From contig CM060733.1 of NCBI GenBank assembly GCA_030704615.1, positions 5,580,001 to 5,644,000 on the forward strand: a stretch of DNA of 64,000 bases, read 5' to 3'. The translations under genes and the position numbers were made by a program. The notes beneath the pieces were generated by a model. That model did no database searches, was not told the DNA's origin, and saw only the letters and a list, made by a program, of their open reading frames with translations. The stretch comes from Takakia lepidozioides. Taxonomy: Eukaryota > Plantae > Bryophyta. Shown piece after piece: positions 2 through 55,868 of the stretch; position 1 is the stretch's first letter; each line of letters starts with the position of its first letter.

Positions 2-2656
2 CCCATTCTTGAGGACCTCCTCAATCCGAGAAAAATCCCCAACCTGATCCATCACCGCCGCCTTGGCTGCCAACTGAACCTCGAGCACCTCCCACGTGTG
101 CCATGGATGCGGCCTGCACCTCGTGGTCCTCACATGCTCGCCCCCACTCGCTGCCTGTACCGTCTCGGTAGGCAGGGAGACCATGAAGGGAAGTGTACCC
201 CGTACTCTGCGCTGCTCAGCCATAGCCAAGCTGATAATCCAGGTCAAGCAATTGAGATCCATTGCTTGCCCCAACACCTGACGACGCAATGCCTCAGAAA
301 GAGATGACACCGCCGTGGTACCAGTGGTAAAACCAATCGCCCGCTCGCGCTCGTCGGCATTGGGCTCCACTAATTGTTGCAACTGGCTATCCCACAAGAG
401 GCCAGGTCCACCATCCCAAAAAGCATGGGATCCTGGGAAGCTGAGCAGTGTAGGTAATGCTGCTTGTGGTTGACCCACCCTGTTGACCACTGCCAAAGGC
501 AAACGGTCATCGTGTCTCACACGTTGAGACTGCCTCCCTGTGTCCAAAATGCTATCCACTGTGAGGTGTGCTGGCCGCTGCACCCCATCAAATGCACGCT
601 TGAGCAGTGCGGGTGGCATCAAGTTAGTCCACCATAGCCGTGGACGATGAGCCCATGACCCCACTGCAGCTGCATCCAGCAACAATGCTGACCCAAGCCA
701 CGACCGGACTTGATGCACACTGGCCATCACCCTGGCTCGAGAATCACCCATCAGTGGCACATTCTCCAAGATGTATACTGGAGATGCAGCTTGATGAAGC
801 TGCAAGTGGCGCAAAACCCGCACCATCTCCCAAAACAGACCCGTCCTCGAGTCTCGCAATCCATTGTCATGCCCGGCTGATGAATGCCCTTGGCAGGGCC
901 AACCTGCCACTACCAGATCAATGGAGCCAACCTGTTCCAAATCCTGCGCCCCCAGCAACGAAATGTCTGCTGGCAAGGCTTGTTGGTATCCACGAACTGT
1001 AGACACTGACAACAAAACATGGTACTGCTGTACCAACTGAGCAAGATGGCGCAGTGAGACGCGTCGTGCAGTCTCATCCCTCTCTACATACAGGTAACGT
1101 CGAACTCGTACACTTGCCTGCAGCACTGCAGCCAATCCAGTGCTGATCCCGCCAAACAAGTCCAGAAGGCATATGCCTTCATCCGGGCACTGCCACACAA
1201 GAGGTGTGGTGTCCAATGGCGACAACTGAGGTGGTCCTGGTGCAATCACCACACTCTCCTCTTCTCCTGACGGTACGAAGGCCTCTACCCAAGCTTGTTG
1301 CACCCGTCCATCAGCAGCCTGCTGCAAATCTTTACTCGTACCCCACAATGGAGTGTGAGCAACCATGGCAGGCAACTCCGCCGTACCATGCATGTCATCC
1401 TGCTCTGCTGGAGGTGACACATCCTCTGCATGGGCATTGCCTTCCAGCAACTCTCCAGGCCAACTAACTGCAGCTGTAAAGGCAGCTAGTGTTGGCATCT
1501 TGCCCCGCTGGGCAGCCGCAATACCCCCAATGAATGTCACAGGGAGTTGTGCACGACGACCATCCCCTGACTGCCATCCAAGCCTGTAGGATGCTGACTC
1601 CTCCCAAAAGTCCAGGGTGAAGCCCATGGGATATAACACTGCCCCACAAATGAGGACATCGTAAGATACCGCGTCTGTCACAATGGCCTTGGCTCGCATC
1701 ACTGAGCCATCTATAGGATGATCCGGCTGCAGTGTAATGGCCAACTCACGCTGTGTCATGCCCCGAGCCTGCTCTGATCCTCCCAGAGATGTCTGTATCT
1801 GGAAAGGACAAGGCTCCATATCCGCCTCTATGAGGCCCAAACCTGCAATAGCAGCTCTGCCCAACATCAGTGGCTGAGCTCCCGAGTCCAACAAGACCCG
1901 CAGTGGTCGGTATTTCTTGCCTGCCGGTCCACTCAAAGAGAAAATGCCATCCTGGTTGTCTAACAAGACAACTCCAGGTGTCACCATGGCGCGCTCAAAG
2001 GCTGGCCTAGCTGGCAGCTCCGTCAACCTGGCAGCTGCAGCTTGCCATGGCGCAGCCGTGGCAGTCTTGACCCTCAAATCCGAGGATCCCTCTGCCACTA
2101 CACCTTCCAGTAACTCCGCAAAAGATGAAGTGACCTCCCCACTCTCACAGAGTGTTGCTGCTAGTCTGAACACTGTAGCTGGTCTTACCCCCGGTGTCGC
2201 AATCATGGTTGCCGAGAATAGTGGGGCTTGACACACAGAGGTGGCTGCCCCCAATAACACACTGGCTGCACTAGCCTTGGTAGCAGGTGTCAGTGATGCA
2301 CGTGTAGCTCTCCCCAATGGCATAGTAACCTCCGCCTCGGTAATAGTCGGGCAAGAACTAGGTGCCATGGATGGCGTCGACACTGTCTCCGCCAATGTGA
2401 ATGATTGAGGAAGCCTCGCCTGACGGCTTACCTCCCCACGCTGTGGCTGTGGATCCAATTCCACCTCTGCACCCCGTGGCTCAGGAACTCGTGCTGCTCC
2501 TCGAGTCACGGCTGCAGCAGACTCCACCTGCTCTAGTGGTAGTGCTGCTTCGCACATGAATCCCATGCCTCCCATATCTCCTCCCTCAGGAACAGGAGGT
2601 GGACCATCCCGCCTGGGAGCCGGTACCACCTGAGCTGTAGCCATCGCAGCGAGCCT
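2..2656 (-). CDS. pol: Pol polyprotein, open to the window edge (~885 codons): linker, retropepsin aspartic protease, C5 cytosine DNA methyltransferase
   Basis: Hand translation gives one frame starting just after TAG 2657-2659: RLAAMATAQVVP...KYRPLRVLLDSGAQPLMLG...YDVLICGAVLYPMGFTLDF...ICLLDLFGGISTG...IEEVLKNG. All motif codons sit at + coordinates = 2 mod 3, and the ORF track lists no terminated ORF in this frame below 2657. Confidence 0.88.
230..1174 (-). other. DNMT3-like C5 cytosine DNA methyltransferase domain within pol
   Basis: Motif I LLDLFGGISTG (D 1160-1162); II YLYVERD; IV DLVVAGWPCQG (catalytic C 893-895); VI YILENV (758-766); VIII AHRPRLWWTNL (RPR 638-646); IX ERERAIGF; X RRQVLGQAM (GQAM 260-271). 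The order is canonical, not permuted. Confidence 0.92.
1560..1990 (-). other. Retropepsin-type aspartic protease domain of pol
   Basis: VLLDSGAQPLMLG catalytic motif, flap-like IQTSLGG and distal YDVLICG (the D.LLG equivalent). Limits are approximate. Confidence 0.8.
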
Positions 2657-2693
2657 CTACTCTAGCTGCTGAAGCCGGTTGGCCATGCCTTGG

Positions 2694-3143
2694 TCAACAC
2701 CCTGACCTCCGCGTCCTTGGCATGTTGAGCTTGCCCTTGGCCTGCACCTCGTGCCTGGCCACCTTGTCCTCTCTAGGCTGGTCCACCTCGCCCCGGCCAC
2801 CATTGTTCCCTTGAAACTGGCCTGGGCGCAACTCAGGATGCAAGTCATAACACTGGGCATCTCCATGCCCATACTTGCCACAATGCCCACACTGCAACTG
2901 TGCAGGCTGTGCTTGTGCCGGCCTTTTGCCACTCTCTGGGCAATCTCTTTTGACATGGGGTCCTCCACATGTCCAACATATCACCCCTGGTTGCTGTTGG
3001 TTTGCAAAAGATGCTACTGGTCTCTGCACCTGAGGTCCCCTGTAAGCTCCATGAAATTTGGATTGGGAAACCTTGCCCCCCTGACCACGCTGTTGGGCAG
3101 TCCCTTGTGCCTGTGGGCTGGCAGCTGCGCCTCGTGCAGGCAT
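2694..3143 (-). CDS. gag: Gag nucleocapsid segment with two CX2CX3-4HX4C zinc knuckles (out of frame with the rest of gag)
   Basis: CWTCGGPHVKRDC and CGHCGKYGHGDAQC in the ORF track translation. Confidence 0.8.
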   Translation of the reverse strand: MPARGAAASPQAQGTAQQRGQGGKVSQSKFHGAYRGPQVQRPVASFANQQQPGVICWTCGGPHVKRDCPESGKRPAQAQPAQLQCGHCGKYGHGDAQCYDLHPELRPGQFQGNNGGRGEVDQPREDKVARHEVQAKGKLNMPRTRRSGC

Positions 3144-4123
3144 GTCTTTGCCAAATCCAATGGTAACAACTCGCTCCTGTTGAGCTCAATCCGCTCAGCC
3201 AGCAGAAACACATCTGCTAATGTGGGTTGGGCTGCTTGTAACAGGGTTGCATCCCGCACCCTTCTCCTGAGCTCCTTGTCCAAAATTCCATACCGGAACT
3301 GGATTGCCTGAGCTTCAGTAACCCCTTGGGTCACACTTATCAAGTGCCTCATACGAGTGTAAGCCTCTCGCAGGCTCTCACTGGGTTTGCGCTGGAAGTC
3401 TTGCAAACTTCGCAGCTTCTCTGTCCGTACACCTTGGTAGTTCCTCCGCAACTCCTGGAAGAGTTCCACCACCGGGTTGAATCTAGGCACATGTGTTGTA
3501 GTCGTGGCAGGAGGAGTAGTAGCACCTTTTGAACTGGTACCACCTACAGAAGTACCACTACTTGTTCCACTACTAGTGCTGGCAGTAGGAGATATTGGTG
3601 CTGATGCAGCTACTGGTCGCGTTGTGCCTCGAGTAATGGAGATGTAGTCAGGTGACCAATACATCCTCCACTCCTCAATCTCTGCTTCATGTCCTCGCCT
3701 GAACTCGTGGTAATCGTCCATAGGCGGGCCTTCCAAATGCTGGAACAGTCCCTTCCACGCCATGAATAGGGTGAACAGTTGTGGATTGCGCATCTGCTGC
3801 AAATCACACCAGCTGTCGAACTCCTGGATAAAGTCATCCAGCTCAATTGTGCCCACAGCTCCAGAGTACCTACGAGGCCCCTTGGTAGCTCCATACATAT
3901 CCTCCATGTCGTCCCACAACAATGGCGAATGAAACTGCACACCTGTTGATGAAGCCTCCGAGTCTGTATCTGACTTTGCACTAGTTGAGGGTGGAGGTGA
4001 AGGTGGTTTGAACCGAATACCTCGTCTTGTGAACCCACTCTCACTGTTACTGCCTATAGCCGTACTCCCCTCAAAATCCTTGGGTAACTCCGTGATGACA
4101 CTCACAATGTGCACCTCCCCCAC
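3014..4123 (-). CDS. gag: Retrotransposon Gag (capsid part); frameshifts near 3170 into the zinc-knuckle frame
   Basis: Contains RYSGAVGTIELDDFIQEFDSW and LRSLQDFQRKPSESLREAYTRMRHL (Q..ES..Y..R major-homology-like region). After IELNR the sensible protein continues in another frame (VVTIGFGKDMPARG...). Confidence 0.8.
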   Translation of the reverse strand: MGEVHIVSVITELPKDFEGSTAIGSNSESGFTRRGIRFKPPSPPPSTSAKSDTDSEASSTGVQFHSPLLWDDMEDMYGATKGPRRYSGAVGTIELDDFIQEFDSWCDLQQMRNPQLFTLFMAWKGLFQHLEGPPMDDYHEFRRGHEAEIEEWRMYWSPDYISITRGTTRPVAASAPISPTASTSSGTSSGTSVGGTSSKGATTPPATTTTHVPRFNPVVELFQELRRNYQGVRTEKLRSLQDFQRKPSESLREAYTRMRHLISVTQGVTEAQAIQFRYGILDKELRRRVRDATLLQAAQPTLADVFLLAERIELNRSELLPLDLAKTCLHEAQLPAHRHKGLPNSVVRGARFPNPNFMELTGDLRCRDQ

Positions 4124-5890
4124 GTCACACTATAAGGCTCTAGTACTAATTCTAATAGTGACACGGGTGGGCACCTGTTGCAATTTAAGGGTCATATCCC
4201 AGTGGCTCAGGGCACCTGCACCTGCATCCACCGCAAGAATTCCTATGGTTGGCTGGTCATCAACCTAGTCTCACCATAGAAGAAACACTGGTGGTCTTGC
4301 TGGTCATCACTCCAGCCTCACCACCGACAGCATACTCTAGGATTGACCGGTGATCAAATCCGGCCTAATCCCTATGAAAGCAAGTGCCCACACAAAACCA
4401 ACATGGCGCACAGTCAAGCATGCATGTGTTGGGGGGGATCCAAACACAAGAAATCAAAACATCAACACCCCCACACCAAAATCCATCTGCAATGCTGATC
4501 CTGCAGAATATCCCAGCCCAAAACCCCGGACTGATTGGCCTCCACCAAGAGAGGCTTTGGCAACTACAAGTACAAAGTAATGAAAATAGTAAAGAGAGGG
4601 AGGGGAAGAATAGAAGCCCCACCAAGCAAGATCTAATCCTGATCTATACTATCAACTGTCAGACTTCTCTCAAAGTGCCTCGCTCTGCATGATGGTAAGG
4701 TGATGGAGGTATATCTATGTCCAGAAACCTTGTCCCAAGCTACAGTAGCTCGCTCTAACCAACCCTCCTCCTTTTTCTGCCAGGTAGAGACAAAACAACA
4801 CTCCCCTATCTCCCGCTTATTGAACACTAAAGAAAATAAAGGTAGGGTCTGACAGTCTCTCAACTCGAAAACTTTGAGATGGTTGCGGGTGTCCTCATTG
4901 CGAATGACTGCATCTCCTTCAAGAAAAACAAACTTGTCATTGCTAATGAACCCCCGCTCGTGGTTGCCTTGTGCAGAGCGTGTCCGGCTGCAACCATGTC
5001 TGATTGCAAGAACTTGTGTGGCTCCTGCTCCTCTGCTCCAGTACACCACGGCCTTGTGGCTGAACACCTTGGTCCCCGGGGCTGTCTTTGGCTGTGTTCC
5101 AAGCCTAGCTTTCACCCACTTTGGTATTTCACCTACAGCTGCAGAACTGCTGGCTCCAACAGAGTTCTGACTGTCCAAAGCAATATTGAAGACCTCAACG
5201 CCAACTACAGCAGTTTGTTGTCTACTGCTAATGCCTGACTCCCAGTATGCAATCAACTCGTCCAACTGCTCTCCACTCAAATCAGTCTGAGTTCCTTGAG
5301 AAACATAAATCTTGTCCCCTTGTGTGCACAGGCTAAGAGAAGAGACATGCCCTTCAATTATGTCCTCATTTCCTCCAGCTATACAAGGAGGACATCCACA
5401 GATTTGTCTTTCATATAGACCAGAACAGGTTCTAGAAACAGAATTGTGGATCTTTCATGGCACACTCACACTCTAAAAATTCCATAGATTTTTAGCAGAG
5501 TCCGAAAAACTAAAACCAGCTTGAGATAGGTAGATTTCCCCTTTCTGCAGCTATCCTCGCAAAAACTGTACCAAACGGAGCTCATATGACAAAGATATGA
5601 CCAATTAGGCTCTAAATCATTCGAATTAGATCAAAAAGGTTTTTTTTTTTTTAACACCAAAACGTTCTCGCCATTAAAAACTGTTCCCAGGTTATCTACG
5701 GGTTCCTGAGGCTGTTCCCCGACTATGCTGACTCCGGGGCTTTGATCCTTCACGCTTGTATCATTCTAAACCAAGTAGCTCCCTGACCCAAGCTCGTATC
5801 AACAGTACACACCTCTGCTCAACAGGCTTAGCAACCCATAGGCTACTTATCCCCAACCTCTACACTCTAGTGAAACAGGATCAGGCCAAG

Positions 5891-6895
5891 ATGAGCAACG
5901 AAGAAGAAGGCTCTGCTCAGCTGAGCCCAATTGAAGAAGACGAAGAGGTCAGTGACATGCACGTCTCCGATGAGCCATACTTCTTTGACGACCAAGTACT
6001 GCAACCCAAGTCCGCCCGAGACCCGATAGAGGTCACCAACGAAGATCCAAGGCCGATTTCTCTCCCCAACAAGGAGCCCCTCTGCCTACAGATCCAGCAT
6101 GCCAGCAGAGGGGGTTCACACCAGCCCCAACCTCAACCGACTTTCCAGCACCATCAACAGTGACGAAGGCAGCTCACACTCCGAACCCAAGAAATCCAGG
6201 GGCCCCCCCTCAAACGAACATCCATCAATTCTCGAAGATACTAACTCCCAGTCCCCGCCGCAACTGTGGATGGGCTATCAGGTCCTCCAATAACATGTGT
6301 TGGACCGGAACTGCTCATAATCAAGGAGATGCAATCCACCGCGGAGCTCCAACAGCTCGGGCTAAAGGCCTCCAAAATCCATGAACTCAGGTACTGCTTG
6401 AAAGCTTTTCCCCACGTACCACAATTATATTTCCCTGCCACTAGACCAGATGGGAAAGATGGGCAGCTGTACCCACTCACCCAGCTTCCAAAAGGCATGA
6501 ACGTCGACCCCGAATCGGGCCTGTCTGCAACACCACATCACATAATCATACGATTTGACAAGGATACAGACATGCCCAAGGAGCATGCTCTATACCGTGC
6601 AAAGAAAAGGTTCACAGATATGAACATCCCCTTGGGGAATATTTTGTACTCCCCAATCACGGCATACACCAAACATGCAAGCAAACTATGGTCAGGGTTA
6701 CTCAAAGTCGAGCTGCTGAACCCCCCGACACAGGTGCTAGGCAGGCTGGTGAGATTCAAGCCACACACGAATAGCTTGAATGGCTTAGCACCCACTGCCG
6801 ACGAAATTCTGGAGCGCCTCCGAGTCGCCAATATAAATCAAGCCCAGCCAGCCCAAACGGGGGATTCCACTGGTCCTTCTCACGCTGCAGCATGA
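5891..6895 (+). pseudogene. Disrupted intronless ORF of unknown function, probably TE-derived
   Basis: Overlapping ORFs 5756-6163, 6099-6293 and 6266-6895 chain by frameshifts. An acidic N-terminus (MSNEEEG...) precedes a globular-looking region (LYPLTQLP...WSGLLKVELLNP), followed by an A-rich, hairpin-rich tail. Confidence 0.4.
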
Positions 6896-7834
6896 GTGCC
6901 CTCATAAACTGAGCACGGCAGGCCTCCTTATCTCCCAGGCTGATTATTGTTGGCTTTGAACTGTTGCAGCAACACTTCAAATGGTTTCCGCCTTCCTGTT
7001 CTGCTCCACTCGGCACACATAGCCAGTCTAACTGCAGGCTGACCAAACTATATTATAATAGTGCTTAAAAACAAAAAACATCATATCTAGCTTAGCACTA
7101 AAAAACTAGATAGCTCATCTCTCTGGAGTGATAGAAAACTAAAAACACACAGTTGACACAAGAAACATGAAAACCAACACCATCACTCTTTAACATAATA
7201 GTCGAGCCAGGGGCACCCCAAGCTATGGGGACTCCACCCCACAACAACCTATTCTCCTTTCATAAACACACTCAGATTTTACATGGTGAAGGAGCTCGAT
7301 CGTGCAGGCTCAACTCGAGAGAGATGAGCCGCACGACTAACGCTCTCGTGAAGATAAGACGGTTCAGGTGTCAAACTAAATTTGACACCTGACTTAACAC
7401 TTGAACTAAATCCAAGTGTTAAATACAAATAACTAGCTTTATTCTAGTTAGTTTCACACTGTGTTTATTTAACTTGATATACAAATCAGCCTCTGGAGTC
7501 TGTCTATGTTGTCGTTGTTGTCGCTCACCGACAATCTCACACCCACACCAAAAGGAACCTTGCAACTTCAAACTCTTACTTAATTATTTTCCTTTCAGGA
7601 ACAAATTCACTTGTTTCTTTACCAAAACATGTGAAATCTGAACTCTTTCACAAAGTGGATGTGATTACAGCAAACCAAGCAACTCTTTGAAGCAAGATGC
7701 TGAAAGAGACTCTTATTTTCTTGAGCAATCCAAAGTTGCGCAACTAGCATTGCACAGATGTTGATGCTCCTCCAATCCCATTTTCTCTTCATTTGTTTAG
7801 CATAAGAGATCATGGTGACCAACCAGTACTAATA

Positions 7835-10882: not shown

Positions 10883-11821
10883 CTAACTTATGATGAGCTC
10901 GGAGGAACTGGACAGTAGGAAAGGGTTGGAAAGATGCTGCACGATAGTTTCAGAACAATCTCTTTTTACGAGGTCACCGAATGCATCATTACCAGTGCTG
11001 CCGTGCTTGCCGTGCTTCATTTTGGCAAGCTCCACCTGAGTCTGCATAAACAGTTGCATTCTTTGCAGCTCCAGGTCCTTGGTAAATTCCATGCGCTTGT
11101 TCTCCAGGTCCATCAGTTGTTGCTGCTTCGCGCTCTCAATTCTCTCATACACTTCCCCAAACTTAATTATAGCCCTGGCCAGATCCTTGAAAGGCCCGTC
11201 TTGCAATCTCCGTTTCTTAATCATCTTCGCCTCCGTTCCCGGTGTGGTAGCATGCGGACAGCTGTCCGTCATGTCAGGACTCTCCTTCGACTTCGTATTG
11301 GTGGACGCATTGTTAAACGTCTTCGGCTCCACATCCTCCCGCGCCTCCCGCTTCCGCGGCTTCAGCCCCGACTTAGGAACTCTCTTGTGCTTCCTCGACG
11401 TCCCTATCAATTCATCCAGCTTCTCAAAAAAGGCCCACTTGCTCCCGCTCCCGCTCCCGCTCCCCGCAACCTTGCTCTTCTCCAACTTGTACTTCTTCTT
11501 CAACGTGTCCAACCTGTTCTTGCACTGCACGTCCGTCTTGGCCGCCTTCCCCTCCTCCCTGCTGTTCACCGTGTCCGCCACATCCTTCCAATGCTTCTGC
11601 TTCAGATTCCCCCGATTCAGCTCCATGTACCGATCCCCCCACGCCTCGATGAGCGTGAAGGTCGCCCCCTCGCTCCAGCAATCCTCCCTGCCATGCTTCT
11701 CGCTACTCTCCAATCCTCCCTGCTTGGCAACCCTAGCCGCGCTGTGGATGCCCGGCAGCGAGAGCGAGAGGGCGTGGTGCTGCGGGTGGACGCCATGCGC
11801 AGCGTGGAGGTGGTCCTCCAT
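10883..11821 (-). CDS. Trihelix transcription factor, ASIL/SIP1-type (Myb/SANT-like DNA-binding domain plus C-terminal coiled coil)
   Basis: GREDCWSEGATFTLIEAWG...W..VA..V...KTDVQCKNRLDTLKKKYK...W.FF and LARAI.KFGEVYERIE...Q.M.DLE..RMEF. Likely start is MEDHLH at 11821 (upstream in-frame ATG at 11962). Probable splice donor after 10993 and a possible tiny last exon at 9715-9708. Confidence 0.92.
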   Translation of the reverse strand: MEDHLHAAHGVHPQHHALSLSLPGIHSAARVAKQGGLESSEKHGREDCWSEGATFTLIEAWGDRYMELNRGNLKQKHWKDVADTVNSREEGKAAKTDVQCKNRLDTLKKKYKLEKSKVAGSGSGSGSKWAFFEKLDELIGTSRKHKRVPKSGLKPRKREAREDVEPKTFNNASTNTKSKESPDMTDSCPHATTPGTEAKMIKKRRLQDGPFKDLARAIIKFGEVYERIESAKQQQLMDLENKRMEFTKDLELQRMQLFMQTQVELAKMKHGKHGSTGNDAFGDLVKRDCSETIVQHLSNPFLLSSSSELIIS

Positions 11822-12283
11822 AGCCAGCAGCGCCTCGCAGGGTTTGTAGCGCCCCCCCGCCCACCCCCCAACACCAAACCGTTGCCGGCCCGCCTCTCTC
11901 CGTCTCTCCTTCCGGCCTCTCCCTTTCCCCTCGCACACTGCCTTCCCGTGGATGACCTCCATCGTTCATCCTCGCCTCGTATTTTACGACACCACTACGC
12001 AATTACGTCCATTGGGTGCGTTCTCGTCGTCGCCCTTTAAAAACTATTGTTTGCAGCAGAATCGGATGTGGAGTTGAACCTGGGACCGCTTGCGTGTTGT
12101 CGGATCGCCTACTCCTGCAGATGTTGCGTGACCTGCAGATGCCGGTTAGCCCGTGCCTGCCGCCTCGCTACTCGCTACCTAACTTAACTCGTTGGTTCCA
12201 AGTTACAACCAGTCAAACTATGGGTGGATGGACGACCATGTGCAAAGCATTCATCGCGGTGGGACGGGCGTGGCGAGTGGCGA

Positions 12284-18265: not shown

Positions 18266-19627
18266 GAGCTTGTGAAGGGTCCACATGGTCCACACTTCAC
18301 AGCGAGCATGGGAAGGAGAGAGCTCTGTGTGGCTTGGCTGTGGACGTCTTTGGCACAGCTTTGGAAGGACACGGGCTTTTCGGAATCTTGGAAACTGTTC
18401 CAAGTTTGAATGCGTCCGCAGATGGTTGAGGTCTAGAGTCTAGACAGGTTTGGATAGTCGGTTCAAGGAAGGGTAGTTCACATTTTGCTTCTGGAAAGGT
18501 TAGGTCTGTCGGAGAACACAGGATAAGTTTTACACATGCCAGGATCTGTGAAGAAGAGGTCAGACTTCCATAGGGCAAGAAGTGCATATAATAGAAGACC
18601 AGGTCATCTGCACAGTGCACATCCGATGGAGATAAGTACATTAGGCTCACAAACAAATCCAGAGTCTGTTCCGTCATATGTACCGTCGGAGCTGCTGTCA
18701 CCTCCGAATGCCATACCCGCAACAGCGGACTGGCTAATGATTAGTATGCCTGATTAGTCCCTTTGGAGTTTTGTCAGCTCCAAGCGAAGAACAGGGACAG
18801 AAGTGTATTGGATACCCGTGAATACACAAGGATGAGATGGTTAATCAACGTAGTGATTGTATTCTTCATTTCTTCCAGAAGATAAAAAACGCTTTCCCTC
18901 GGTTGGTTCCCCGTGAGACAGACTCTGGAAACTCCGCGATGTCTGTAGCTAGTCAAGCAGATTGGCTTGGCCCAAAGACTGGGATCCGTTTTGAAAGTAT
19001 TCAGTAGGGTCGGATGCACATACTCTATAAACCCCATCTGCACGTGAAAAAAGGGTCGGGTTCCAGTGTCAATTCTCAATGCTTGACGTGAAACAAAGTT
19101 TGTAAGTATGTTGCTGTCAACTAAAACCTTCATGGTTGTTTGCCATCATCCATATGCTGGCGGGACCACAATTCAAACAAAACTAGTACCTGCTGTGTCA
19201 GAAGGTGACTTGTCCCACTTCAACTCTACTTAATACTAGATGTGATGAAATTCACACCCACCCACTCTTTCAGTTGAGTCGCAGATCAGCCAAGCACCTA
19301 TTCCCTTCACTTGTCTCATTCCAGAGACAACTTAAGGTAAGAGGCAGACATTCTCCTTGGGCAGTACCTGTGACCATGTGGTCTGTACTGGAATCAACAT
19401 TTTAACGCAGATGGGCCTTGCACCCACAAATCTTCACATGTGTCTGAGAGAGAAAAATAGTCATTAAATGTTTCGTGTGGACGTTTTGGCTGTGACATAA
19501 CCTTGAGGGTGTAGATCACAGGTATCACATGTACTCCTTCGACTTCACTTCTGACCATAACCTGCACCTGGTGTGGAGGGGCTCCCAAGGCTGAACGACA
19601 GCTGGACAGAGAATTCAGCTTAGAGTA
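18266..19627 (+). repeat. Local segmental duplication, copy 1 (~1.36 kb direct repeat of 28963-30317)
   Basis: Near-identical sequence from GAGCTTGTGAAGGGTCCACA to GAATTCAGCTTAGAGTA; the ORF track shows duplicated translations (18536 vs 29217). Confidence 0.97.
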
Positions 19628-26617: not shown

Positions 26618-28990
26618 TCACCAATAATCCCCACAAGAGCACACCCCGTTCTTGAAGTGGTGAAAGCGATTTGCATCCCTGGCGACAATCTCTCGCCCAA
26701 CAATCTTGGTGATGAACTTGGTGGCAGTGTGGCAATCACCACATACCCGCAGGTTCTTCATTATGCGGATAGTCGTCCCAGGGGGTGTACTGATGAGCCC
26801 AAATGCAATGGCCAGTTTTTCACTGTGGTGGCAGAGAACCTGTTCTTTTGTCCGCTTATCCATATCATGCAAGACAAACCGTGTGTCTGGCACATATCCT
26901 GCCTCCTTCATCTGCCTGGTCAATCTCTCCAACTCAGCATAGATCTCCTCCGTTTGTGGGTGTGATCGATCCTGCACACCAAACGTATGTACCCTGCTGT
27001 TGACCTCAATCCAGCAGCACCCTGCCTCCTTTTTCACACCTCTGTCCTCCATGACCTTTCTGACCTTTGCTACATCCTCCCACCTTCCGGCCACAGAGTA
27101 AGTGTTTGAAAGCTGCACATACACTGCAGCATTTTCCGGTTCAGACCTGAGGACCTGTTCTGCAGCGCATTCTGCTAGCTCCACCCTGCCATGGATCCTA
27201 CAAGCACCAAGCAAGGCCCACCACACTGCAGCACCTGATTCAATTTGCATGTTGTTGATGAAGTCCTCAGCCTCGTCCAACCTTCCTGCACGGCCAAGAA
27301 GGTCAACCATGCAGCTATAATGATTCTCTGTCGGTGTGATGCCATGATCTCGACTCATGGAAATAAAGTATTGATGACCTTTATCCACCAGGCCCACATG
27401 ACTGCATGCAGAGAGAACGCAGAGGAATGTGACCTGGTTGGGTTTCACCCCTTCCAATTGCATGTCTTCAAAGACTTGCAGAGCCTCTTCTCCGTGCCCA
27501 TGCTGGGCGTATCCCATCATCATTGCATTCCAGGCGAACAGGTCCCTTTCAAGAATTTTGTCAAATGCTTCTCGTGCATCCTTGAGGCTTCCGCATTTGG
27601 CATACATGTCAACAAGGGCAGTCCCAACATAAACATCTGACTCGGATCCAGATTGCAAAATGTGCGCATGGACCCGTTTTCCCTCTTCAAGAATTGCTAG
27701 GATGGCACACGCTTTGAGGATGCTGGTGAAAGTCATCTTGTTTGGGCTAATGCCTTCTAGCTGCATCTGCCAAAAAAACTCGCAAACATCCTCAGCATGA
27801 CCACACTGGATTGATCCAGCAATCATCGCAGTCCAGGAGACCACATTCCGTTCAGGCATTTTGAAGAACACTCGGTGCGCATCCACCACACTCCCACTTC
27901 TGCAATACATGCTGACAAGAGCAGTCCCCACTTGGACATCTGACACAAATCCAGCTTTGATGATGCTTGCATGAATCTGCTTGCCCATTTCCAGGGTGGT
28001 CGGGCTGGCACACGCGCTGATGAAGGTGATCTTGTTTGGCTTCATGCCTTCTAGTTGCATTTGTTGAAAGAGGTCCAAAGCCTCTTCACTGTACCCTTGG
28101 TGAGCATATCCTGCCATCATCCCAGTCCATGAGACCACATCTCGTTCAGGCATTGTGTCAAATACTCGGCGCGCATCCCCCACACACCCGCACTTGCAAT
28201 ACATACAGACAAGTGCAGTCCCCACTTGGACATCTGATTCAAAACCAGCTCTGATTATGCCGGCGTGTAGCCGCTTGCCCTGTTCGAGTGCTGCTGGGCT
28301 GGCACATGCATTGAGAATGCTAATGAATGTGACCTTGGAGGGCTTCAGGCCTTCTTCTTGCATTTGGCGAAAGAATTCAAATGCCTCTGAACCATGCCCT
28401 TCCTTAGCAAGCCCTGCAATCATCGTATTCCATGAGACCACGCTCCGTTTAGGCATTTGGTTGAACACTTGGTGTGCATCCACAACACTTCCACACTTCA
28501 CATACATACTAACAAGGTTATTTCCTAGGAAGATATCTGGCTCGAATCCACTTTTCATGATGTGGGCATGGACCTCCTTGCCATCTTCCAGGGCCTTCGT
28601 CTTTGCATATCCCTGCAAGAGACGAACACAGCTCTCGGAGTATGCACGGAAGCCACGTTGCTGCATGAAATCCAGAATTTCCAGTGGTGCCTCCAATTGC
28701 CCCACCTTGCAGAGTAGTCCCACATTTCCACCAGATACACAACTGTCGTTGCCACCTCCCTCTCCCGGTCTTTGCCTCCAGCCTCCATTAAATGCAGTGC
28801 TGCCGCTGTAGTTGCAATGAATGGCAGGCCTGCCCCAGCTTGCATACCGAGCAGATGACTGGGTGTGATTCGAGACGTGGAACTCCACCGCCCTGCGTGA
28901 TGAAAGAGAGTGACTTGAGCATAGTGACTTCGGAGTGGAGTATTTTGTGTGGAGAAGTATAGGAGCTTGTGAAGGGTCCACAGCAAGCAT
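26618..28990 (-). CDS. PLS-class pentatricopeptide repeat protein with E and DYW deaminase domains (organellar C-to-U RNA editing factor)
   Basis: Intronless ORF with P-L-S triplets (VVSWNTMIAG, LVSMYVKCGSVVDA), PG-box-like AGCCWIE, HSEKLA...CGDCH zinc ligands and terminal DYW. First ATG is at 28990 (MLAVDP, 790 aa); the Ser-rich N-terminus resembles a transit peptide. Confidence 0.97.
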   Translation of the reverse strand: MLAVDPSQAPILLHTKYSTPKSLCSSHSLSSRRAVEFHVSNHTQSSARYASWGRPAIHCNYSGSTAFNGGWRQRPGEGGGNDSCVSGGNVGLLCKVGQLEAPLEILDFMQQRGFRAYSESCVRLLQGYAKTKALEDGKEVHAHIMKSGFEPDIFLGNNLVSMYVKCGSVVDAHQVFNQMPKRSVVSWNTMIAGLAKEGHGSEAFEFFRQMQEEGLKPSKVTFISILNACASPAALEQGKRLHAGIIRAGFESDVQVGTALVCMYCKCGCVGDARRVFDTMPERDVVSWTGMMAGYAHQGYSEEALDLFQQMQLEGMKPNKITFISACASPTTLEMGKQIHASIIKAGFVSDVQVGTALVSMYCRSGSVVDAHRVFFKMPERNVVSWTAMIAGSIQCGHAEDVCEFFWQMQLEGISPNKMTFTSILKACAILAILEEGKRVHAHILQSGSESDVYVGTALVDMYAKCGSLKDAREAFDKILERDLFAWNAMMMGYAQHGHGEEALQVFEDMQLEGVKPNQVTFLCVLSACSHVGLVDKGHQYFISMSRDHGITPTENHYSCMVDLLGRAGRLDEAEDFINNMQIESGAAVWWALLGACRIHGRVELAECAAEQVLRSEPENAAVYVQLSNTYSVAGRWEDVAKVRKVMEDRGVKKEAGCCWIEVNSRVHTFGVQDRSHPQTEEIYAELERLTRQMKEAGYVPDTRFVLHDMDKRTKEQVLCHHSEKLAIAFGLISTPPGTTIRIMKNLRVCGDCHTATKFITKIVGREIVARDANRFHHFKNGVCSCGDYW

Positions 28991-30317
28991 GGGAATGAGA
29001 GAGCTGTCTGTGGCTTGGCTGTGGACGTCTTTGGCACAGCTTTGGAAGTACACGGGCTTTTCGGAATCTTGGAAACTGTTCCAAGTTTGAATGCGTCCTC
29101 AGATGGTTGAGGTCTAGAATCTAGACAGGTTTGGATAGTCGGTTCAAGGAAGGGTAGTTCACATTTTGCTTCTGGAAAGGTTAGGTCTGTCGGAGAACAC
29201 AGGATAAGTTTTACACATGCCAGGATCTGTGAAGAAGAGGTCAGACTTCCATAGGGCAAGAAGTGCATATAATAGAAGACCGGGTCATCTGCACAGTGCA
29301 CATCCGATGGAGATAAAGTACATCAGGCTCACAAACAAATCCAGAGTCTGTTCCGTCATATGTACCGTCGGAGCTGCTGTCACCTCCGAATGCCATACCC
29401 GCAACAGCGGACTGGCTAATGATTAGTATGCCTGATTAGTCCCTTTGGAGTTTTGTCAGCTCCAAGCGAAGAACAGGGACAGAAGTGTATTGGATACCCG
29501 TGAATACACAAGGATGAGATGGTTAATCAACGTAGTGATTGTATTCTTCATTTCTTCCAGAAGATAAAAAACGCTTTCCCTCGGTTGGTTCCCCTTGAGA
29601 CAAGACTCTGGAAGCTCTGCGATGTCTGTAGCTAGTCAAGCAGATTGGCTTGGCCCAAAGACTGGGATCCGTTTTGAAAGTATTCAGTAGGGTCGGATTG
29701 CAGTCGCACATACTCTATAAACCCCATCTGCACGTGAAAAAAGGGTGGTGTTCCAGTGTCAATTCTCAATGCTTGACGTGAAACAAAATTTGTATGTTGC
29801 TGTCAAGTAAAACCTTCATGGTTGTTGCCATCATCCATATGCTGGCGGGACCACAATTCAAACAAAACTAGTGCCTGCTGTGTCAGAAGGTGACTTGTCC
29901 CACTTCAACTCTACTTAATACTAGATGTGATGAAATTCACACCCACCCACTCTTTCAGTTGAGTCGCAGATCAGCCAAGCACACACCTATTCCCTTCACT
30001 TGTCCCATTCCAGAGACAACTTAAGGTAAGAGGCAGACATTCTCCTTGGGCAGTACCTGTGACCATGTGGTCTGTACTGGAATCAACATTTTAACGCAGA
30101 TGGGCCTTGCACCCACAAATCTTCACATGTGTCTGAGAGAGAAAAATAGTCATTAAATGTTTCGTGTGGACGTTTTGGCTGTGACATAACCTTGAGGGTG
30201 TAGTTCACAGGTATCACATGTACTCCTTCGACTTCACTTCTGACCATAACCTGCACCTTGGTGTGGAGGGGCTCTCAAGGCTGAAAGACAGCTGGACAGA
30301 GAATTCAGCTTAGAGTA
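28963..30317 (+). repeat. Local segmental duplication, copy 2 (overlaps the PPR start codon)
   Basis: Matches 18266-19627 but lacks the 16-bp TGGTCCACACTTCACA present in copy 1. Confidence 0.97.
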
Positions 30318-33300
30318 ATGAGTCTTTTTAACAAGGTGATACAGTTAGAACAGAGTTGAAGTCAGAATCAACAACAAGTAGAACGCATGCTTGCTTCCTT
30401 CTTACCAGAGAGATAAAAAGTGTTCGGCTGATTGTCAACATAGTGTGTTTTTGGAGCTTCCCTGTAAACGAGAAACCATTCATCATCTGAAAGGACAACA
30501 TAACAGTGTGAGTGGGGTTGTTAGCTGAAAGCCTCAGGTCAGGGACATGTCCACCCTTGATAATTGTCACTTGGAGTCAATCAGACTAAAGACGCCGCTT
30601 CATTAAACTCTTTGTAATGCTTCCAAGCACAAATGAGTTCAACTAAAACGACAATTGTACCGTACAGATTGGAAACACAAGCTACGCAACATTCCAGTTT
30701 GCCTATTGGGACTCTTATTGGTCTGACTAGTTATCTGCAGAGAAAACATGGATCCCCTCATGTATTGAAAAGAAGATAGAGGGAAACATGCTTAGCTCAC
30801 CAACTTAGATGGCAGTCACGTCATAGTGCCTTATGTACCATCCAAGAATGATGTGATGGTTATTAAGAGTGCATCTTCACAAGGCACACACTCTTACAAT
30901 TAACATTCCAGCGTTCATTTACCTCTGGATGGAGACATAATCAGCCTGTGGGTCACTATCTTCAACGCAGTAAGATCAGGACAACCTGCAGCCCCTACAC
31001 ACAGGAGAATAAGACATGATTTGAAATGAAAGAAACAAAAAAATGTCCACAGGGGCCCTCAATGGACCATGGGGCAAAAGTAGAACAACAAGAAACCACT
31101 TGAGAGGCAGAGAGAGGCAGCTTTCCAAGGGAGAGCAGAACATCTAGATAACTTCCATTGCCCAAATGATGGCATTGGGGCAATCCCTTTTTACTACTGC
31201 CAGACAGATAGCCCACACTGGTCTGTGATCCAGCCACAAATTCATTGTTACTAGATTAAATCACATGTACCTTATCCGTTACACAGCAGAGCACCATATT
31301 CGACCTTCCACAGCTTTCTTCGGCCTTGTCCAAGGGGAAGGGGTTGATAGTCCATGTGTGCTATCTGGAGGGGTTGTCTCTGGCCTTCGTGGTCCCTTTA
31401 GCAATTCAAAATCCCACAATCCCAGAAATTGTGTAAGGTTCTCCTGGTCTTGGCTGGTTATTGTGGGCCCCACTTTTCTTTCTTGGTTCTTAATCCTTTC
31501 CTTGGTTCATAAACTCTCTGAGCTTACTTTGGATGTCATAACATTATAATCCTTTTATATGATACTTAAACAGCGCCATATTGTCTGGTACAACTTGTTC
31601 ACATTCACATAATTCCTTGAGTTTCATTAGAATAATTGAATGGTGTCAATGAGCGGATTTGACTAGTATTAGGTTGCAGTCAAGCAAGGCCGTACTCGAG
31701 GTAATCATTACAAAGCATTTCCGACAATCCCTTTTGGTAAAACTTATGGCATATCATGCCAAATATTTAAGGACTAGCCAGCAGTGTTGTCCAAATCTCC
31801 GACAAAGGCAACCAATAACTGTAATGTTGGATCAATGGAACGGAAAAGCATGGATCTATTACCGTACTGTAAAAGACCTGCAGTGGAAGAAAATGGGAAT
31901 TGGTCCTTTCCTGCCCGTTTTGACCACCTTTTGAGTATTGGCATCCCAACTGCAATTGTAAGAGAAATCAAGTCCTAGGTGAGTGTCAGCCAGGTAACTC
32001 TTGTCAGGGACCACTGAGCTCTGTATTCAATGCATTCAATGCCTTCCAGTTAAAAATGACAACAGAGCTCTTCGAGACATAAGCATATAGCCACCACACT
32101 ACCCCAAGATGCTAATCAACCCAGGTCTAGATTTCAGCAGACCCAAAGGGGAATAGAAATAGCACTATAATAACCGCATAAAATACTTCAGACAAAATAA
32201 AACCCCTAGCAGAAAATTATGGTGTCAACAAACATTACTAGCAGTTCAGAAGCTTCCATCCCCTTTATTCTTCACTTCTTTTCTACTTTCCGGTCCGTGA
32301 GTCAAGAGAATGTACTCATAAGACATTGTTTGCCGTAACCTTTGTGGCCATTGACCTCACGCCCAGTTTGAGCGGAACACAAAGGGACAGAACCTACCTT
32401 TGTCAGGGGCTGACGCTGGTAGTAAGACTTACCATGGAATAAACAATTGATCCGGGCTTTCCAGATATCCTCTAGAAATCCATTGACACAAGCATCAACC
32501 AGCTGTGTGTGGTTTGTCCAATAACTAGGCCCCAAAAGGGCCTGGGCTTTTCGCTCAGCCTCGAGACTTTCAAAGTTGGTAAACAGACCCTTGATAGATT
32601 TGAAGAGAGCATCTCTCTGGTGAGAGAATCCCAGACAATGAATCAGAAAATGAATATTGTCTTCAGGTTGTCCACACAACAGGCAATTGCACTCTCCCTT
32701 TCCTCTCTGCTTCTGTTTGCTGTTCAAAGGTAGGCTTCCCGCCCTGAGTTTAAATTTGAGTCTCGTGCCGAGAGTGAGTAAACCCTTGAGGCCATCCATG
32801 ATGTCCTCCCCAATGTCACAGACTGGAAACAAGTTCAGGGAAGTTTTCTGCCTAACTTCATTTTCATCAGACAATTTCCTGGCAACAGACATGGCTTTGG
32901 ACACTACAGCCTCTAAGTCAGCAGGGTCAAGATTTGCCAGCAGGGTCAAGACTTGCGGGCTAAGATTCTGATCCTTCAGAATCTCTTCTACTGTCTTCCG
33001 CCAGGACTTAGCCTATTTGACAGGGCGATCCTGCTTCCAAGATATAGAGTCAATTAACTTAGGATATCTGATGTTGGATATATGTTGCAGCTGACCCTAC
33101 CATCTGACCTTGAATTCATCTCGTTGGGAGCTTAAGGAAGGGATGCCAAACGCACCCTGAACAGCCACATTGGCTGTTTTGGAGCTTGCTGACATGCACT
33201 CCTTGAGCCACCCCATTTGAATGGATTCCAGAGACTTAGACTGGTTGGAGTTATCAACCCATATTGCTGATGCGTACTCCAAGGCAGGTCTAATAACACA

Positions 33301-36300
33301 ACAAAGAATGGTTTTTTTTTACCTTGAGTTGATCCCTCTGCAGTGGAAAAATTTAGTGAGACCCAGCGCTTTGCACTTGCCAGTTTGAACCACTTTTATG
33401 TGCATCCAAATTACAGTTGGAGGAACTCAACACCAAGGTATGTGTAGGAAGGGAGGACCGGAATCTCTTGGCTTCCCCACTGCCACTTTGAGATCACCTC
33501 CTCTCTCTCCTCGGTCGTTGAATGCCACCACTGCACATTTACTGACGTTAACCTCTAGCCCCCAAAGGTCAAAGTATCTCTTCGCACAATCAAACAACTC
33601 CTGGAGATTGGAAGGAGTCTCCCCTATGCCTGCGAAGTCATCTGCAAACATAAGGGCTGGTATGGTGGCATCACCCACCCTTAACCCAAATCCCTCACCT
33701 TCCACATCCTTGAGGAGTTGATTGACGAAAACATTGAAGAGCAGAGGGGAGAGGGTACATCCTTGAGCTACACCTTGGTCTATGTCAAAGAAGTTAGACT
33801 TCTGTCCATTAACAGTGACACAACTTTTGGTGTGAGCATACAAGTTATGAACCACTCTCCACATCTTCCCCAGTCTCTCCACACTGTGTCGTAAGCCTTT
33901 TTGACATCCAAGAAAAATACAAAAGTGGGTTTCCCTTCTTTTTTCCTTCCCTGGATAATCTGGCTTAGAGTGAAGATATGATCCACACAGCCCCTGTTTC
34001 GCCGAAAGCCAGCTGGCCTTCGTGAAACAACCTCTAGATTCCAGATCAACCTCGAGACAAGTACTTATAACTCCACAAAATATCTGGCCAACTGCATTGA
34101 GGAGCGTGATGCCTCGGTAGTTCCCGGTTCTTGTCTGTCACACTTCTTGTATAGATTGACAATGACCCCCTGTCGGCAGTGAAAGGGGTTAATTTCAGTC
34201 CTCCAGATAAGGTTAAAGAGAAGTACAAGGGCCTCTATCATGGGAACGCCACCGTGCTTGATAAGCTCGTCGATTATGCCATCAGGTCCACCAGCTTTAT
34301 ATCCGCTTAAAGGGCTGTCTTGAATCATAGGAACAGTTTTTCCAACTGTCCTTCCATTCTTCAGAGGACCCCTCACTGTTAGTTAGACCTCGAAATTCTG
34401 CCAAGGATACTGTAGTGGGTTTCAAAGGTTTTGACAATGTCAACCGTTGAAGTCACCACTGCACCCTTAGTAGTCCTCAGTGCTTGTACTTGCTGACAGT
34501 TTTTCGGCTTGTACAAACGTTGAAGGGCCAACCAGAATCTCTTCTCATTACCACCATGGTGGATTGAGTTTATGTCACTGTATAGCTTGTCCCAGTATAA
34601 TTTCTTCTGAGACCTTACAAGCTGATTGATATCTTTGTGGATCTGGTAGAACCTAGCCCACAATTCTTTGAGTCAAGAGGGAAAGAAGTAAATGAAATGA
34701 ATGAAATGAAATGGTGCTTTATAACGTCTGCGGAAAGCTCACCTTATTAGTGTCTGTTTTTCGAACAGGTTTAATTACTGCAGTTGGCACCACCTGTGGG
34801 CAATCACACATGGGAAGATATTATAACGACATGTTTCATGTGTAATTGTGAGTCTCCAGGCCATCCTGACCATTTGACTTTCAGATTTTCAGTTCTAGAG
34901 GTAGGCAAAAGCCATCATTAGCAGAAGCTGGGTAGAAGTAGACTAATCACATTTGTGATAGCCCATTGTACACTGGTTTTATTTCCAGGAGCCCAAGATG
35001 TTGAGGAGCTCAACTCATGCTCTCAAGTCACTCTTCTAATTGGGTGCCCGCTTCAATTTGTAAGACTAGCCACAAGCCTTAATGGTGATTCTTCAAGTGT
35101 CAGGACTCTATTTTACAGACATAGTTTGATAAGCTAATTAGCCTCCCATTCAGAACTGGAATACGAGTGAAACTTGTTCTGACAACTTCATTCATATTCT
35201 GCTTCTAACTCCGCTGGCATGCCTCTATCTCCTGTCAATTTCTACCTTTGCTGTTGGTACCACTGTCTTCTATCCAATGTATGGGATAGCTTACCTGACC
35301 ATACGGTATCCGCTGCAGAAGCTGCCTCTTTAGATCAGTAATACGCTTTTCGTAACTTCTCTTCATTTGTACCTGCATTTTCGATGGGCAAAGATGATGA
35401 GATACACCATGAAATGTATGCTTTCCATTTGCAGCAAAAACAAAAAAAATTGGAAGTTCAATAATCTTACTGCCTGGTGTTTCCCCCGGTCCCGCCAGAA
35501 GAAGCTCATATCAGCCTGCACATCAAACAGATTCAGGCTTATTGTTATTATGTTATTATGCTAAGAGAGGAAGGGGGTGTTTCCTTTAGAAGCAAGAGAG
35601 TCAGAGAGGAAACGAAGAAGAGGACAAAATAAACTTACTATGTTCATGTGAGGTCCTAAAGGCCTACATGCCACAATTAAAACAACTGAACTACAGAAAA
35701 CAAACCATAGAAGACGTACTCAAAAGCTCAGGCAGCACAAAGGCTGAGTGCCAGATAGAGAGGGTACCAGAAGCTCTTGTAATGTGGCAGTTGGAACATC
35801 GGGGCAGTTCTGCTTGCGGAAAGCCATCACCATGTCATAAGCCTCAGCAGGTATCCTGCCATATGACAGCAATTTTGATTCAAGATACACCCTGAAAATG
35901 AATGTGGCCAGAATGAACAACATCATGTTGCTTTGAGAGGTCTAAACCTCGATGATTCGATCAGAGACCAGACAGGATGAAACGTTGTCCTACTTGAAAA
36001 CTTATGATACTCCAGGAACACCTAGCCTTTTTTGAGCCCTCAGAGCTCCAGTTGACAGGTTATTAATTTGAACTTACATGCACAATCTCTAGTTTCTTAC
36101 CACTGAGCAGCCTCTGTCTTCATCTGGACAGGTCTGACATGATGTTTACAACAACTGTACCGGTGTGACAACCGCTGCATACCAAAACAACAGGAAGTAA
36201 TAGAGCGTAAGCAAGAATTACATCTATTTTCTTTAGCTGTAACTCTTCACCCGCCCTTGATGTTTACTGTACCACACACTGTCAATTCACATGATGCCAG

Positions 36301-51740: not shown

Positions 51741-55868
<4,128 letters not shown>

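Follow-up and report, generated by a model that had tools for sequence, protein, structure and literature searches.

Retrotransposons that carry their own cytosine DNA methyltransferase (DNMT) have been described in dinoflagellates and charophyte algae (PMC5890265), as a preliminary description of the DNA analysed here had correctly stated. The closest of them is KnitGypsy-Dnmt3 of Klebsormidium nitens, whose DNMT, in the main text of de Mendoza et al. 2018, lies within the Pol frame and whose repeats are DIRS-like (PMC5890265). Where a 2019 paper touches on the subject, methylase-coding transposons are given as absent from land plants such as tracheophytes; in their passages on these elements, later papers of the de Mendoza group speak of “streptophyte” Gypsy-DNMT3, a term that may silently include Marchantia. 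Here we analyse a stretch of 64 kb of the bryophyte Takakia lepidozioides (contig CM060733.1, positions 5,580,001 to 5,644,000; hereafter the window), one end of which is almost certainly occupied by a broken copy of a Gypsy-type retrotransposon encoding a DNMT3-like methyltransferase after its protease. The window holds only the gag, protease, DNMT and candidate 5’ repeat of this element; the features of pol, the stop codon and the 3’ repeats discussed below come from relatives. A Gypsy element carrying DNMT3 is already known from KnitGypsy-Dnmt3; new are the land-plant and wider green-algal range, a conserved stop codon, a predicted self-priming site, and repeats in the order A-internal-B-A-B with a palindromic junction.

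The methyltransferase domain and its family

The minus-strand frame 2656-2 stays open for 885 codons, and holds a protease motif and those of a C5 cytosine methyltransferase in order (Table 1). Motifs I, IV, VI, VIII, IX and X of the methyltransferase are canonically arranged, with the catalytic Cys, the Glu and the Arg-x-Arg in place, and the protein matches PF00145 in Pfam (E 3.3e-12, 46.9 bits, cut-off 22). Compared by sequence with solved structures, the window DNMT alone has DNMT3A/DNMT3B as top matches (E 5e-8); a profile of 30 sequences gives DNMT3A at E 9e-26, the DRM type at 2e-18, HhaI at 1e-9 and DNMT2 at 2e-6. The predicted structure (pLDDT 93.8) likewise has DNMT3A/B as its best Foldseek matches (E 1e-19, TM 0.71), with DNMT3A, B or C in 31 of 31 among the matches listed. 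By sequence profile and modelled fold, then, DNMT3 stands nearer to the domain than DRM, DNMT2 or the bacterial enzymes do. The preliminary description had reported a protease frame running unbroken into a C5 methyltransferase with ordered motifs and intact catalytic residues, and every motif that it quoted was located. The domain that it placed at 230..1174 is there, with a slightly wider true extent (1177-206). Of the two Pfam matches that it proposed to look for, PF00145 was found and the retropepsin was not: the window protease has no Pfam match, and the matches of Asp_protease_2 to the proteases of relatives are weak.

A search with the window DNMT domain found 64 longer proteins, the best at 73% identity, with 60-72% for Marchantia (full-cover), 72% for Calypogeia and 49-56% for Sphagnum. 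At E < 1e-30 the domain matches 232 representatives (50% clustering). Farther members come from Closterium, Scenedesmus, Haematococcus and K. nitens; relatives with pol only were found in Riccia and in a Coleochaete transcriptome. Among 44 fetched loci (numbered with L), 34 are family copies, most of which we term Sphagnum-type because one, L001, matches a S. fallax protein with 100% identity along stretches of 90 and 123 residues. The order gag, protease, reverse transcriptase (RT), RNase H, integrase is present in L001, L005, L023, L024 and L025, and the two frames of L023 contain rve and H2C2 integrase domains and a PHD finger, with no chromodomain. Marchantia has five full-length Gag-protease-DNMT frames of 1278-1281 aa, 95-98% identical to one another. 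Gene names place two full-length Gag-protease-DNMT frames, P0448 and P0449 (Mp_Vg00370, Mp_Vg00540), on the V (male) sex chromosome of Marchantia. Two other family proteins, P0057 and P0394, are labelled Minisyncoccia and Synechococcales in the database, likely through eukaryotic contigs misassigned in genome bins.

The family shows three layouts: a Gag-protease-DNMT frame that closes a short way past the DNMT (land-plant type), an unbroken protease-DNMT-RT-RNase H-integrase, and RT-RNase H-DNMT-integrase-PHD (chlorophytes). The chlorophyte type, with the DNMT between RNase H and integrase, is seen in P0087, P0220, P0222 and about 95 other proteins (Scenedesmus, Haematococcus); the domain has thus changed its place in pol, and the range of the family is wider than the streptophytes. 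In trees built without host DNMT3, whose support labels may sit one node off after re-rooting, the window groups with Marchantia, Calypogeia and Sphagnum (FastTree 1.0, UFBoot 98). FastTree joins all forms with DNMT before RT, K. nitens included (support 0.94), whereas IQ-TREE (43 sequences) disagrees on the deep order, nesting the chlorophyte forms among the DNMT-before-RT forms with K. nitens basal.

Between lineages the DNMT is under purifying selection, the ratio of nonsynonymous to synonymous divergence (dN/dS) being roughly 0.1-0.2. Across 221 full-cover domains, counted without dereplication, the catalytic Cys is kept in 216, the Glu in 219, and the two Arg in 217 and 216. Compared between L020 and L023, the DNMT has a dN/dS of 0.13 and the protease one of 0.10; the window differs from eight Sphagnum-type copies by dN 0.21-0.24, with dS saturated. 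The preliminary description had named a one-off and a neutral dN/dS with catalytic residues lost as outcomes that would undo it: the 34 of 44 loci form a multi-copy family, and the dN/dS of 0.13 comes with near-invariant catalytic residues.

The stop codon between methyltransferase and reverse transcriptase

Relatives of the land-plant type have an in-frame stop about 75-130 codons past the DNMT, ahead of RT. L023 carries a stop-free frame of 1369 codons for Gag-protease-DNMT and another of 1047 codons for RT-RNase H-integrase-PHD; the two share a register and are parted by a single TAG. We sought this junction in 32 loci (L009 and L022, lacking the region, were set aside) and found it in 28, the misses being two insertions, one contig end and one overlooked frameshifted copy. 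The stop, TAG in 22 loci and TAA in six, is in frame with the DNMT in 24 of the 28, and is followed by CAR-YY in 28/28; the exact CARYYA stands there in 4/4 non-Sphagnum-type loci. Unselected plain translations show the same stop site, and the Calypogeia-type frame and the five Marchantia frames end at the same place. Where the DNMT of a protein is complete, the chain stops behind it in 49 cases (in 40 of them within 58-169 residues) and goes on into RT in 35; several of these 35 are spliced gene models. No conserved RNA structure 3’ of the stop was evident in six folds.

UAG-CAR-YYA is the type I readthrough motif of tobamoviruses, with readthrough of 6-10% in transgenic Arabidopsis in the passages that report it (PMC3542737, PMC2754532). 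To judge by its context, the conserved stop in our family is probably read through by ribosomes to make RT-RNase H-integrase-PHD. Since an in-frame stop lies between DNMT and RT in the land-plant-type relatives, the DNMT there ends the Gag-protease frame, and the preliminary statement that it stands “in frame within pol” finds no support in that form; the expectation that RT, RNase H and integrase follow downstream in the same register is borne out in relatives such as L023. In the window, 36 residues separate the HPW motif from the edge, against 38-49 from HPW to the C terminus in four intact relatives, and the stop of this copy is therefore predicted 2-13 codons beyond the edge. In a separate lineage (P0052, P0238, P0240, P0241) the frame ends 2-3 residues past the DNMT, while the sister P0317 continues into RT; this is a second, independent break at the same place.

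Repeats, predicted self-priming and the copy in the window

In L025 the element is made of A (339 bp, TG...CA), the internal region, a purine tract, B (113 bp, end CAYGACA), GC, A and B, with a 4-bp target duplication (AAGG). L001 also has B-GC-A; L005, L009 and L013 end at the first B, L013 with the target duplication TACA. The purine tract, B and the CA-NN-TG junction are common to the Sphagnum-type copies and the distant L023. The preliminary description had spoken of a long terminal repeat (LTR) retrotransposon. The element is indeed a Gypsy-type retroelement, but relatives have split A/B repeats instead of ordinary paired LTRs, and two identical end LTRs were not seen: L025 has A-internal-B-A-B, L001 shows B-GC-A, and L013 is A-internal-B.

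Behind A follow 16 bases that can pair with a stretch inside A, about 26 nt past a TATA-like box. This pair scores 14.5-16 of 16 in five of eight Sphagnum-type copies (16/16 in L025) and is partial in one more; in L023 it scores 15/16. The pair of the window (7329-7314/7128-7113) has no equal in the 64 kb at a spacing of 120-280 nt, and sits behind TCA, on the strand of the element, 3.2 kb upstream of gag. When 7335-7100 is folded (z -3.6), this pair makes up the closing helix, the predicted self-priming regions of three families having z -3.6, -4.4 and -3.3. The sites of the three families share no sequence, so that pairing is what is kept, and it is likely from this complementarity that the RNA of the element primes itself in the manner of Tf1.

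If the minus strand is self-primed and priming of the plus strand takes place ahead of B, the resulting cDNA would be bounded by B-NN-A repeats. This cDNA would circularise and the integrase would cut the internal palindromic B-A junction, a circle with two repeats yielding A-internal-B-A-B and a circle with one repeat A-internal-B. Integrated copies start with A and end with B, and this permutation fits circularisation and cutting of an internal palindrome; we regard integration of a circular cDNA by this route as an evenly balanced proposition. In the parts of a paper on foamy virus that deal with it, the integrase is able to cut such palindromic junctions, and integration of circles by retroviral integrases is known only as a side reaction (PMC1180852).

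In the window, gag, the zinc-knuckle segment and protease-DNMT all match Marchantia Mp4g09160 (Table 1). In Mp4g09160 and in intact L023 the nucleocapsid segment shares its frame with gag and protease; the window copy has two compensating frameshifts around it, plus a TAG at 2659-2657, and because of these is dead or defective. Its match to Retrotrans_gag (E 0.0012) is below the Pfam cut-off. At its 3’ end the candidate repeat A has TCA, immediately followed by the primer-site sequence, an arrangement shared with two related families, and its start was read from a TGTC motif at the spacing of relatives; no second copy of it lies within the 64-kb window, and the 5’ region has no DNA similarity to related loci. 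The DNMT differs from its relatives at 15 of 166 otherwise invariant sites, nine of which are explicable by a single C>T or G>A. Excess decay was considered and appears weak, given that relatives differ at 0-18 such sites. CpG observed/expected is 0.40-0.55 in the element versus 0.32-0.50 in three other coding stretches and the whole window.

Some further features lie in the 5’ part of this copy. A frame of 273 codons in the leader (4633-5454, minus strand), sense to gag and without a Pfam match, is a candidate accessory gene or nested insertion; its identification as TraN (Atlas score 0.86) was taken as noise. An interrupted frame with an acidic N terminus and no Pfam match runs antisense inside the predicted leader (5891-6895, plus strand), and two adjoining hairpins (7364-7430) lie within the candidate 5’ repeat.

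Table 1. Parts of the retrotransposon copy in the window, in 5’ to 3’ order of the element
Feature	Position	Strand	Basis
LTR-like candidate for 5’ repeat A, ~405 bp with TG...CA; 5’ boundary tentative	7129..7533	-	TCA end before primer site
Predicted self-primer, 5’ end of element RNA	7314..7329	-	15/16 complementary to 7128-7113
Predicted primer-binding site for self-priming, adjoining the CA end of repeat A	7113..7128	-	complementarity
5’ leader, 3.2 kb (relatives ~1.1-1.3 kb)	3908..7112	-	between primer site and gag
gag, capsid-like part, first ATG 3907	3186..3907	-	60% identity to Mp4g09160 residues 1-267
gag nucleocapsid segment, two CX2CX4HX4C knuckles, frame-shifted	2694..3185	-	comparison with Mp4g09160
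In-frame TAG in gag-protease linker	2657..2659	-	intact relatives without stop there
Retropepsin, DSG at 1888-1880	1529..1984	-	DSG motif, 56% identity to Mp4g09160 segment
VLLDSGA protease motif	1897-1877	-	frame 2656-2
DNMT3-like C5 cytosine methyltransferase domain	206..1177	-	canonical motif order, Pfam, fold, sequence profile
DNMT motif LLDLFGG	1168-1148	-	frame 2656-2
DNMT motif YVERD	1090-1076	-	frame 2656-2
DNMT motif DLVVAGWPCQG	919-887	-	frame 2656-2
DNMT motif YILENV	775-758	-	frame 2656-2
DNMT motif DAAAVGSWAHRPRLWWTN	676-623	-	frame 2656-2
DNMT motif ERERAIGF	352-329	-	frame 2656-2
DNMT motif RRQVLGQAM	286-260	-	frame 2656-2
Tail after DNMT	2..205	-	up to window edge

Elsewhere in the window, 26618-29098 (minus strand) encodes without introns a PPR protein of the PLS type; it has E, E+ and DYW domains and is an RNA-editing factor of organelles. 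A direct duplication of about 1.3 kb (18298-19627 and 28979-30317, 96-99% identity, 10.7 kb apart) overlaps with its second copy the 5’ end of this PPR-DYW frame. Pfam also identifies a trihelix-type Myb/SANT frame (10883-11965, minus strand), a broken reverse transcriptase of the long interspersed nuclear element type (32302-34137, minus strand; RVT_1 E 1e-15) and a multi-RRM exon (52929-53621, plus strand). The last we take to resemble a poly(A)-binding protein, and a frame at 63023-63499 (minus strand) presumably resembles ornithine aminotransferase. The DYW-type PPR protein and the trihelix-type frame by themselves point to a land-plant host, and the nearest named relatives of the element to a bryophyte.

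Role of the methyltransferase and comparison with known systems

Plants silence transposons by cytosine methylation, and why an element should bring its own methyltransferase has been unsettled since the charophyte enzyme proved inactive in yeast in 2018. Standing ahead of a probably leaky stop, the DNMT would be made at the level of Gag and, made with every Gag, would be packaged in bulk; this position predicts many enzyme copies per particle, freed inside it by the protease, an amount suited to methylating a 9-kb cDNA. There the enzyme may methylate the double-stranded cDNA de novo, with CG as the likely target, and new insertions would then arrive methylated. We lean slightly towards the cDNA as its substrate. 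The split repeats of other DNMT3 elements of 2018 fit a role on a free double-stranded intermediate, and the related retroelement enzyme SymbioDIRS-Dnmt3 methylates CG in yeast, according to the main text of the same study (PMC5890265). Overall, we favour, with some reserve, a Gypsy element with a leaky stop after the DNMT, whose enzyme likely methylates the cDNA of the element itself. A wider picture is only tentative: a self-priming lineage across green plants, with a DDE integrase cutting the palindrome of the circle and a leaky stop loading DNMT that methylates the circle before integration, in which near-intact Marchantia copies, some on the V chromosome, may add to the methylome of the host. 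The anatomy of the repeats would predict obligatory integration from circles. Marchantia polymorpha is a transformable model with intact frames, and therefore the role of the enzyme is accessible to experiment.

Several points weigh against the reading we favour. We infer methylation activity, readthrough and circle integration from sequence. When the K. nitens enzyme was tried in yeast, no methylation resulted, an outcome deemed inconclusive by the authors in the text reporting it (PMC5890265); CpG depletion of the element beyond its surroundings, sought as a trace of self-methylation, was not found; and dN/dS among dead Sphagnum-type copies is 0.32-1.07, which fits the expectation after insertion. 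The stop and 3’ repeats of the window’s own copy fall outside the window, the complete A-internal-B-A-B copy was seen once (L025), and two of eight Sphagnum-type copies are without a good self-priming pair. The pattern used to find the junction (stop plus Q-led peptide) is partly circular, 24 Sphagnum-type copies read CAACCY rather than CARYYA, and the stop is not lineage-wide, because 35 proteins run from DNMT into RT. Finally, an ATG 6-12 nt past the stop in three of four lineages makes reinitiation possible. RT-RNase H-integrase-PHD could be made from a nearby AUG, or else from a spliced or shorter RNA, with DNMT still produced with Gag in either case. Sphagnum-type copies have the ATG at +7, L020 and L034 have it at +13, and the database gene models P0006 and P0040 splice across the stop; however, the two frames are exactly in register, CAR-YY is preserved across lineages near synonymous saturation, intact L023 has GTG at that position, L026 is without ATG in the 30 nt shown, and the spliced models disagree in their junctions. 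Both routes together seem to us rather unlikely compared with readthrough. Somewhat less doubtful, though still the weaker account of the repeats, is that these are ordinary LTRs on a linear cDNA, the short A-internal-B copies arising from later genomic B-B recombination. Recombination between B1 and B2 would retain the termini and target duplication of L013, but would leave unexplained both the purine tract in front of B, given that integrated copies start with A and finish with B, and the conservation of the internal CA-NN-TG junction.

The enzyme might instead act mainly on host DNA, on target flanks through integrase-PHD or on the genome in trans. The readthrough product would link DNMT to integrase and PHD, and chlorophyte relatives place the DNMT between RNase H and integrase, but the position before the stop leaves most of the land-plant-form enzyme separate from the integrase, and we think such a role unlikely. 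That the domain is kept as a non-catalytic binder of nucleic acids or as an RNA methyltransferase is quite improbable: the inactivity of the K. nitens enzyme in yeast, as given in the main text (PMC5890265), would agree with it, whereas the catalytic and S-adenosylmethionine-binding residues are near-invariant and DNMT3 is far closer than DNMT2 (E 1e-25 vs 2e-6). As for a one-off chimera, a misassembly or a host DNMT3 gene beside a transposon, nothing beyond the cut by the window end speaks for it, and the same intronless order across dozens of independent contigs and genomes makes it negligible. Moreover, host plant DNMT3 (PpDNMT3 type) is, in the accounts we drew on, a multi-exon gene with a C-terminal DUF3444; the window protein has no Pfam match to this domain, and its DNMT is intronless and fused to a protease.

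Our search found no report of bryophyte elements of this kind, nor of a stop, self-priming or circle model for them, with Repbase and most subscription journals outside its reach; the bryophyte range was not found in the literature examined, in keeping with the preliminary description, which knew of no characterised land-plant family. Among known groups, the TG...CA termini and 4-6 bp target duplication of Ty3/Gypsy are found in L025 and L013 (4 bp). DIRS/PAT/Ngaro identity was rejected, the L023 frames having rve and H2C2 integrase domains and no tyrosine recombinase match; so was Troyka, a group of animals only, which does not have split repeats and requires CG...CG termini, a 3-bp duplication and a CX2CX8-10HX4C knuckle, none of which is present. 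Self-priming from the 5’ end of the RNA, as predicted for our family, is known, as far as the relevant passages go, from Tf1/Sushi, Tj1 and the plant Tcn1 chromoviruses, and Tj1 also needs a stop between gag and pol (PMC6317226, PMC4600332). In those accounts these elements have ordinary paired LTRs, and Tcn1 carries a chromodomain where our family has a PHD finger; the stop of our family follows protease and DNMT. The passages of the REXdb paper that we examined do not mention a methyltransferase. The tobamoviruses, in the sections on their type I readthrough, resemble our family in a stop with a six-base context and a polymerase as the extension (PMC3542737, PMC2754532), but have another type of genome, and position 6 is a pyrimidine in the Sphagnum-type copies.

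EpiLTRs, in the part of the preprint that describes them, likewise combine a cytosine DNMT with a chromatin reader in an LTR element, but their enzyme is DNMT4-related, they have an adenine methyltransferase and a chromodomain, and they are declared separate from streptophyte Gypsy-DNMT3 (bioRxiv 10.64898/2026.05.21.726589). SymbioDIRS-Dnmt3 shares with our family a retroelement DNMT3 and split direct repeats; it has a tyrosine recombinase in place of the DDE integrase, belongs to dinoflagellates, and is an independent capture according to its authors in the main text (PMC5890265). KnitGypsy-Dnmt3, in the same text, has Gypsy domains, an unrearranged DNMT3-like domain, A-coding-B-A-B repeats and purifying selection, all as in our family; its split direct repeats are matched in relatives, the window showing a 5’ repeat candidate only. 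The main text of PMC5890265, as distinct from Fig. 4c and the main supplement, which were outside the search, has no terms for readthrough, self-priming or target sites in connection with it. The K. nitens protein KFL_009030040 runs protease-DNMT-RT-RNase H-integrase, with a DNMT 44% identical to that of the window (260 aa, E 9e-59). KnitGypsy-Dnmt3 was described there as Pol-frame and confined to the K. nitens lineage, whereas the window family occurs in land plants with a stop after the DNMT: a single open frame for DNMT and RT is not seen in land-plant-type copies, and the same is predicted for the copy in the window. With these differences, the window family most likely works like KnitGypsy-Dnmt3 and shares its descent.

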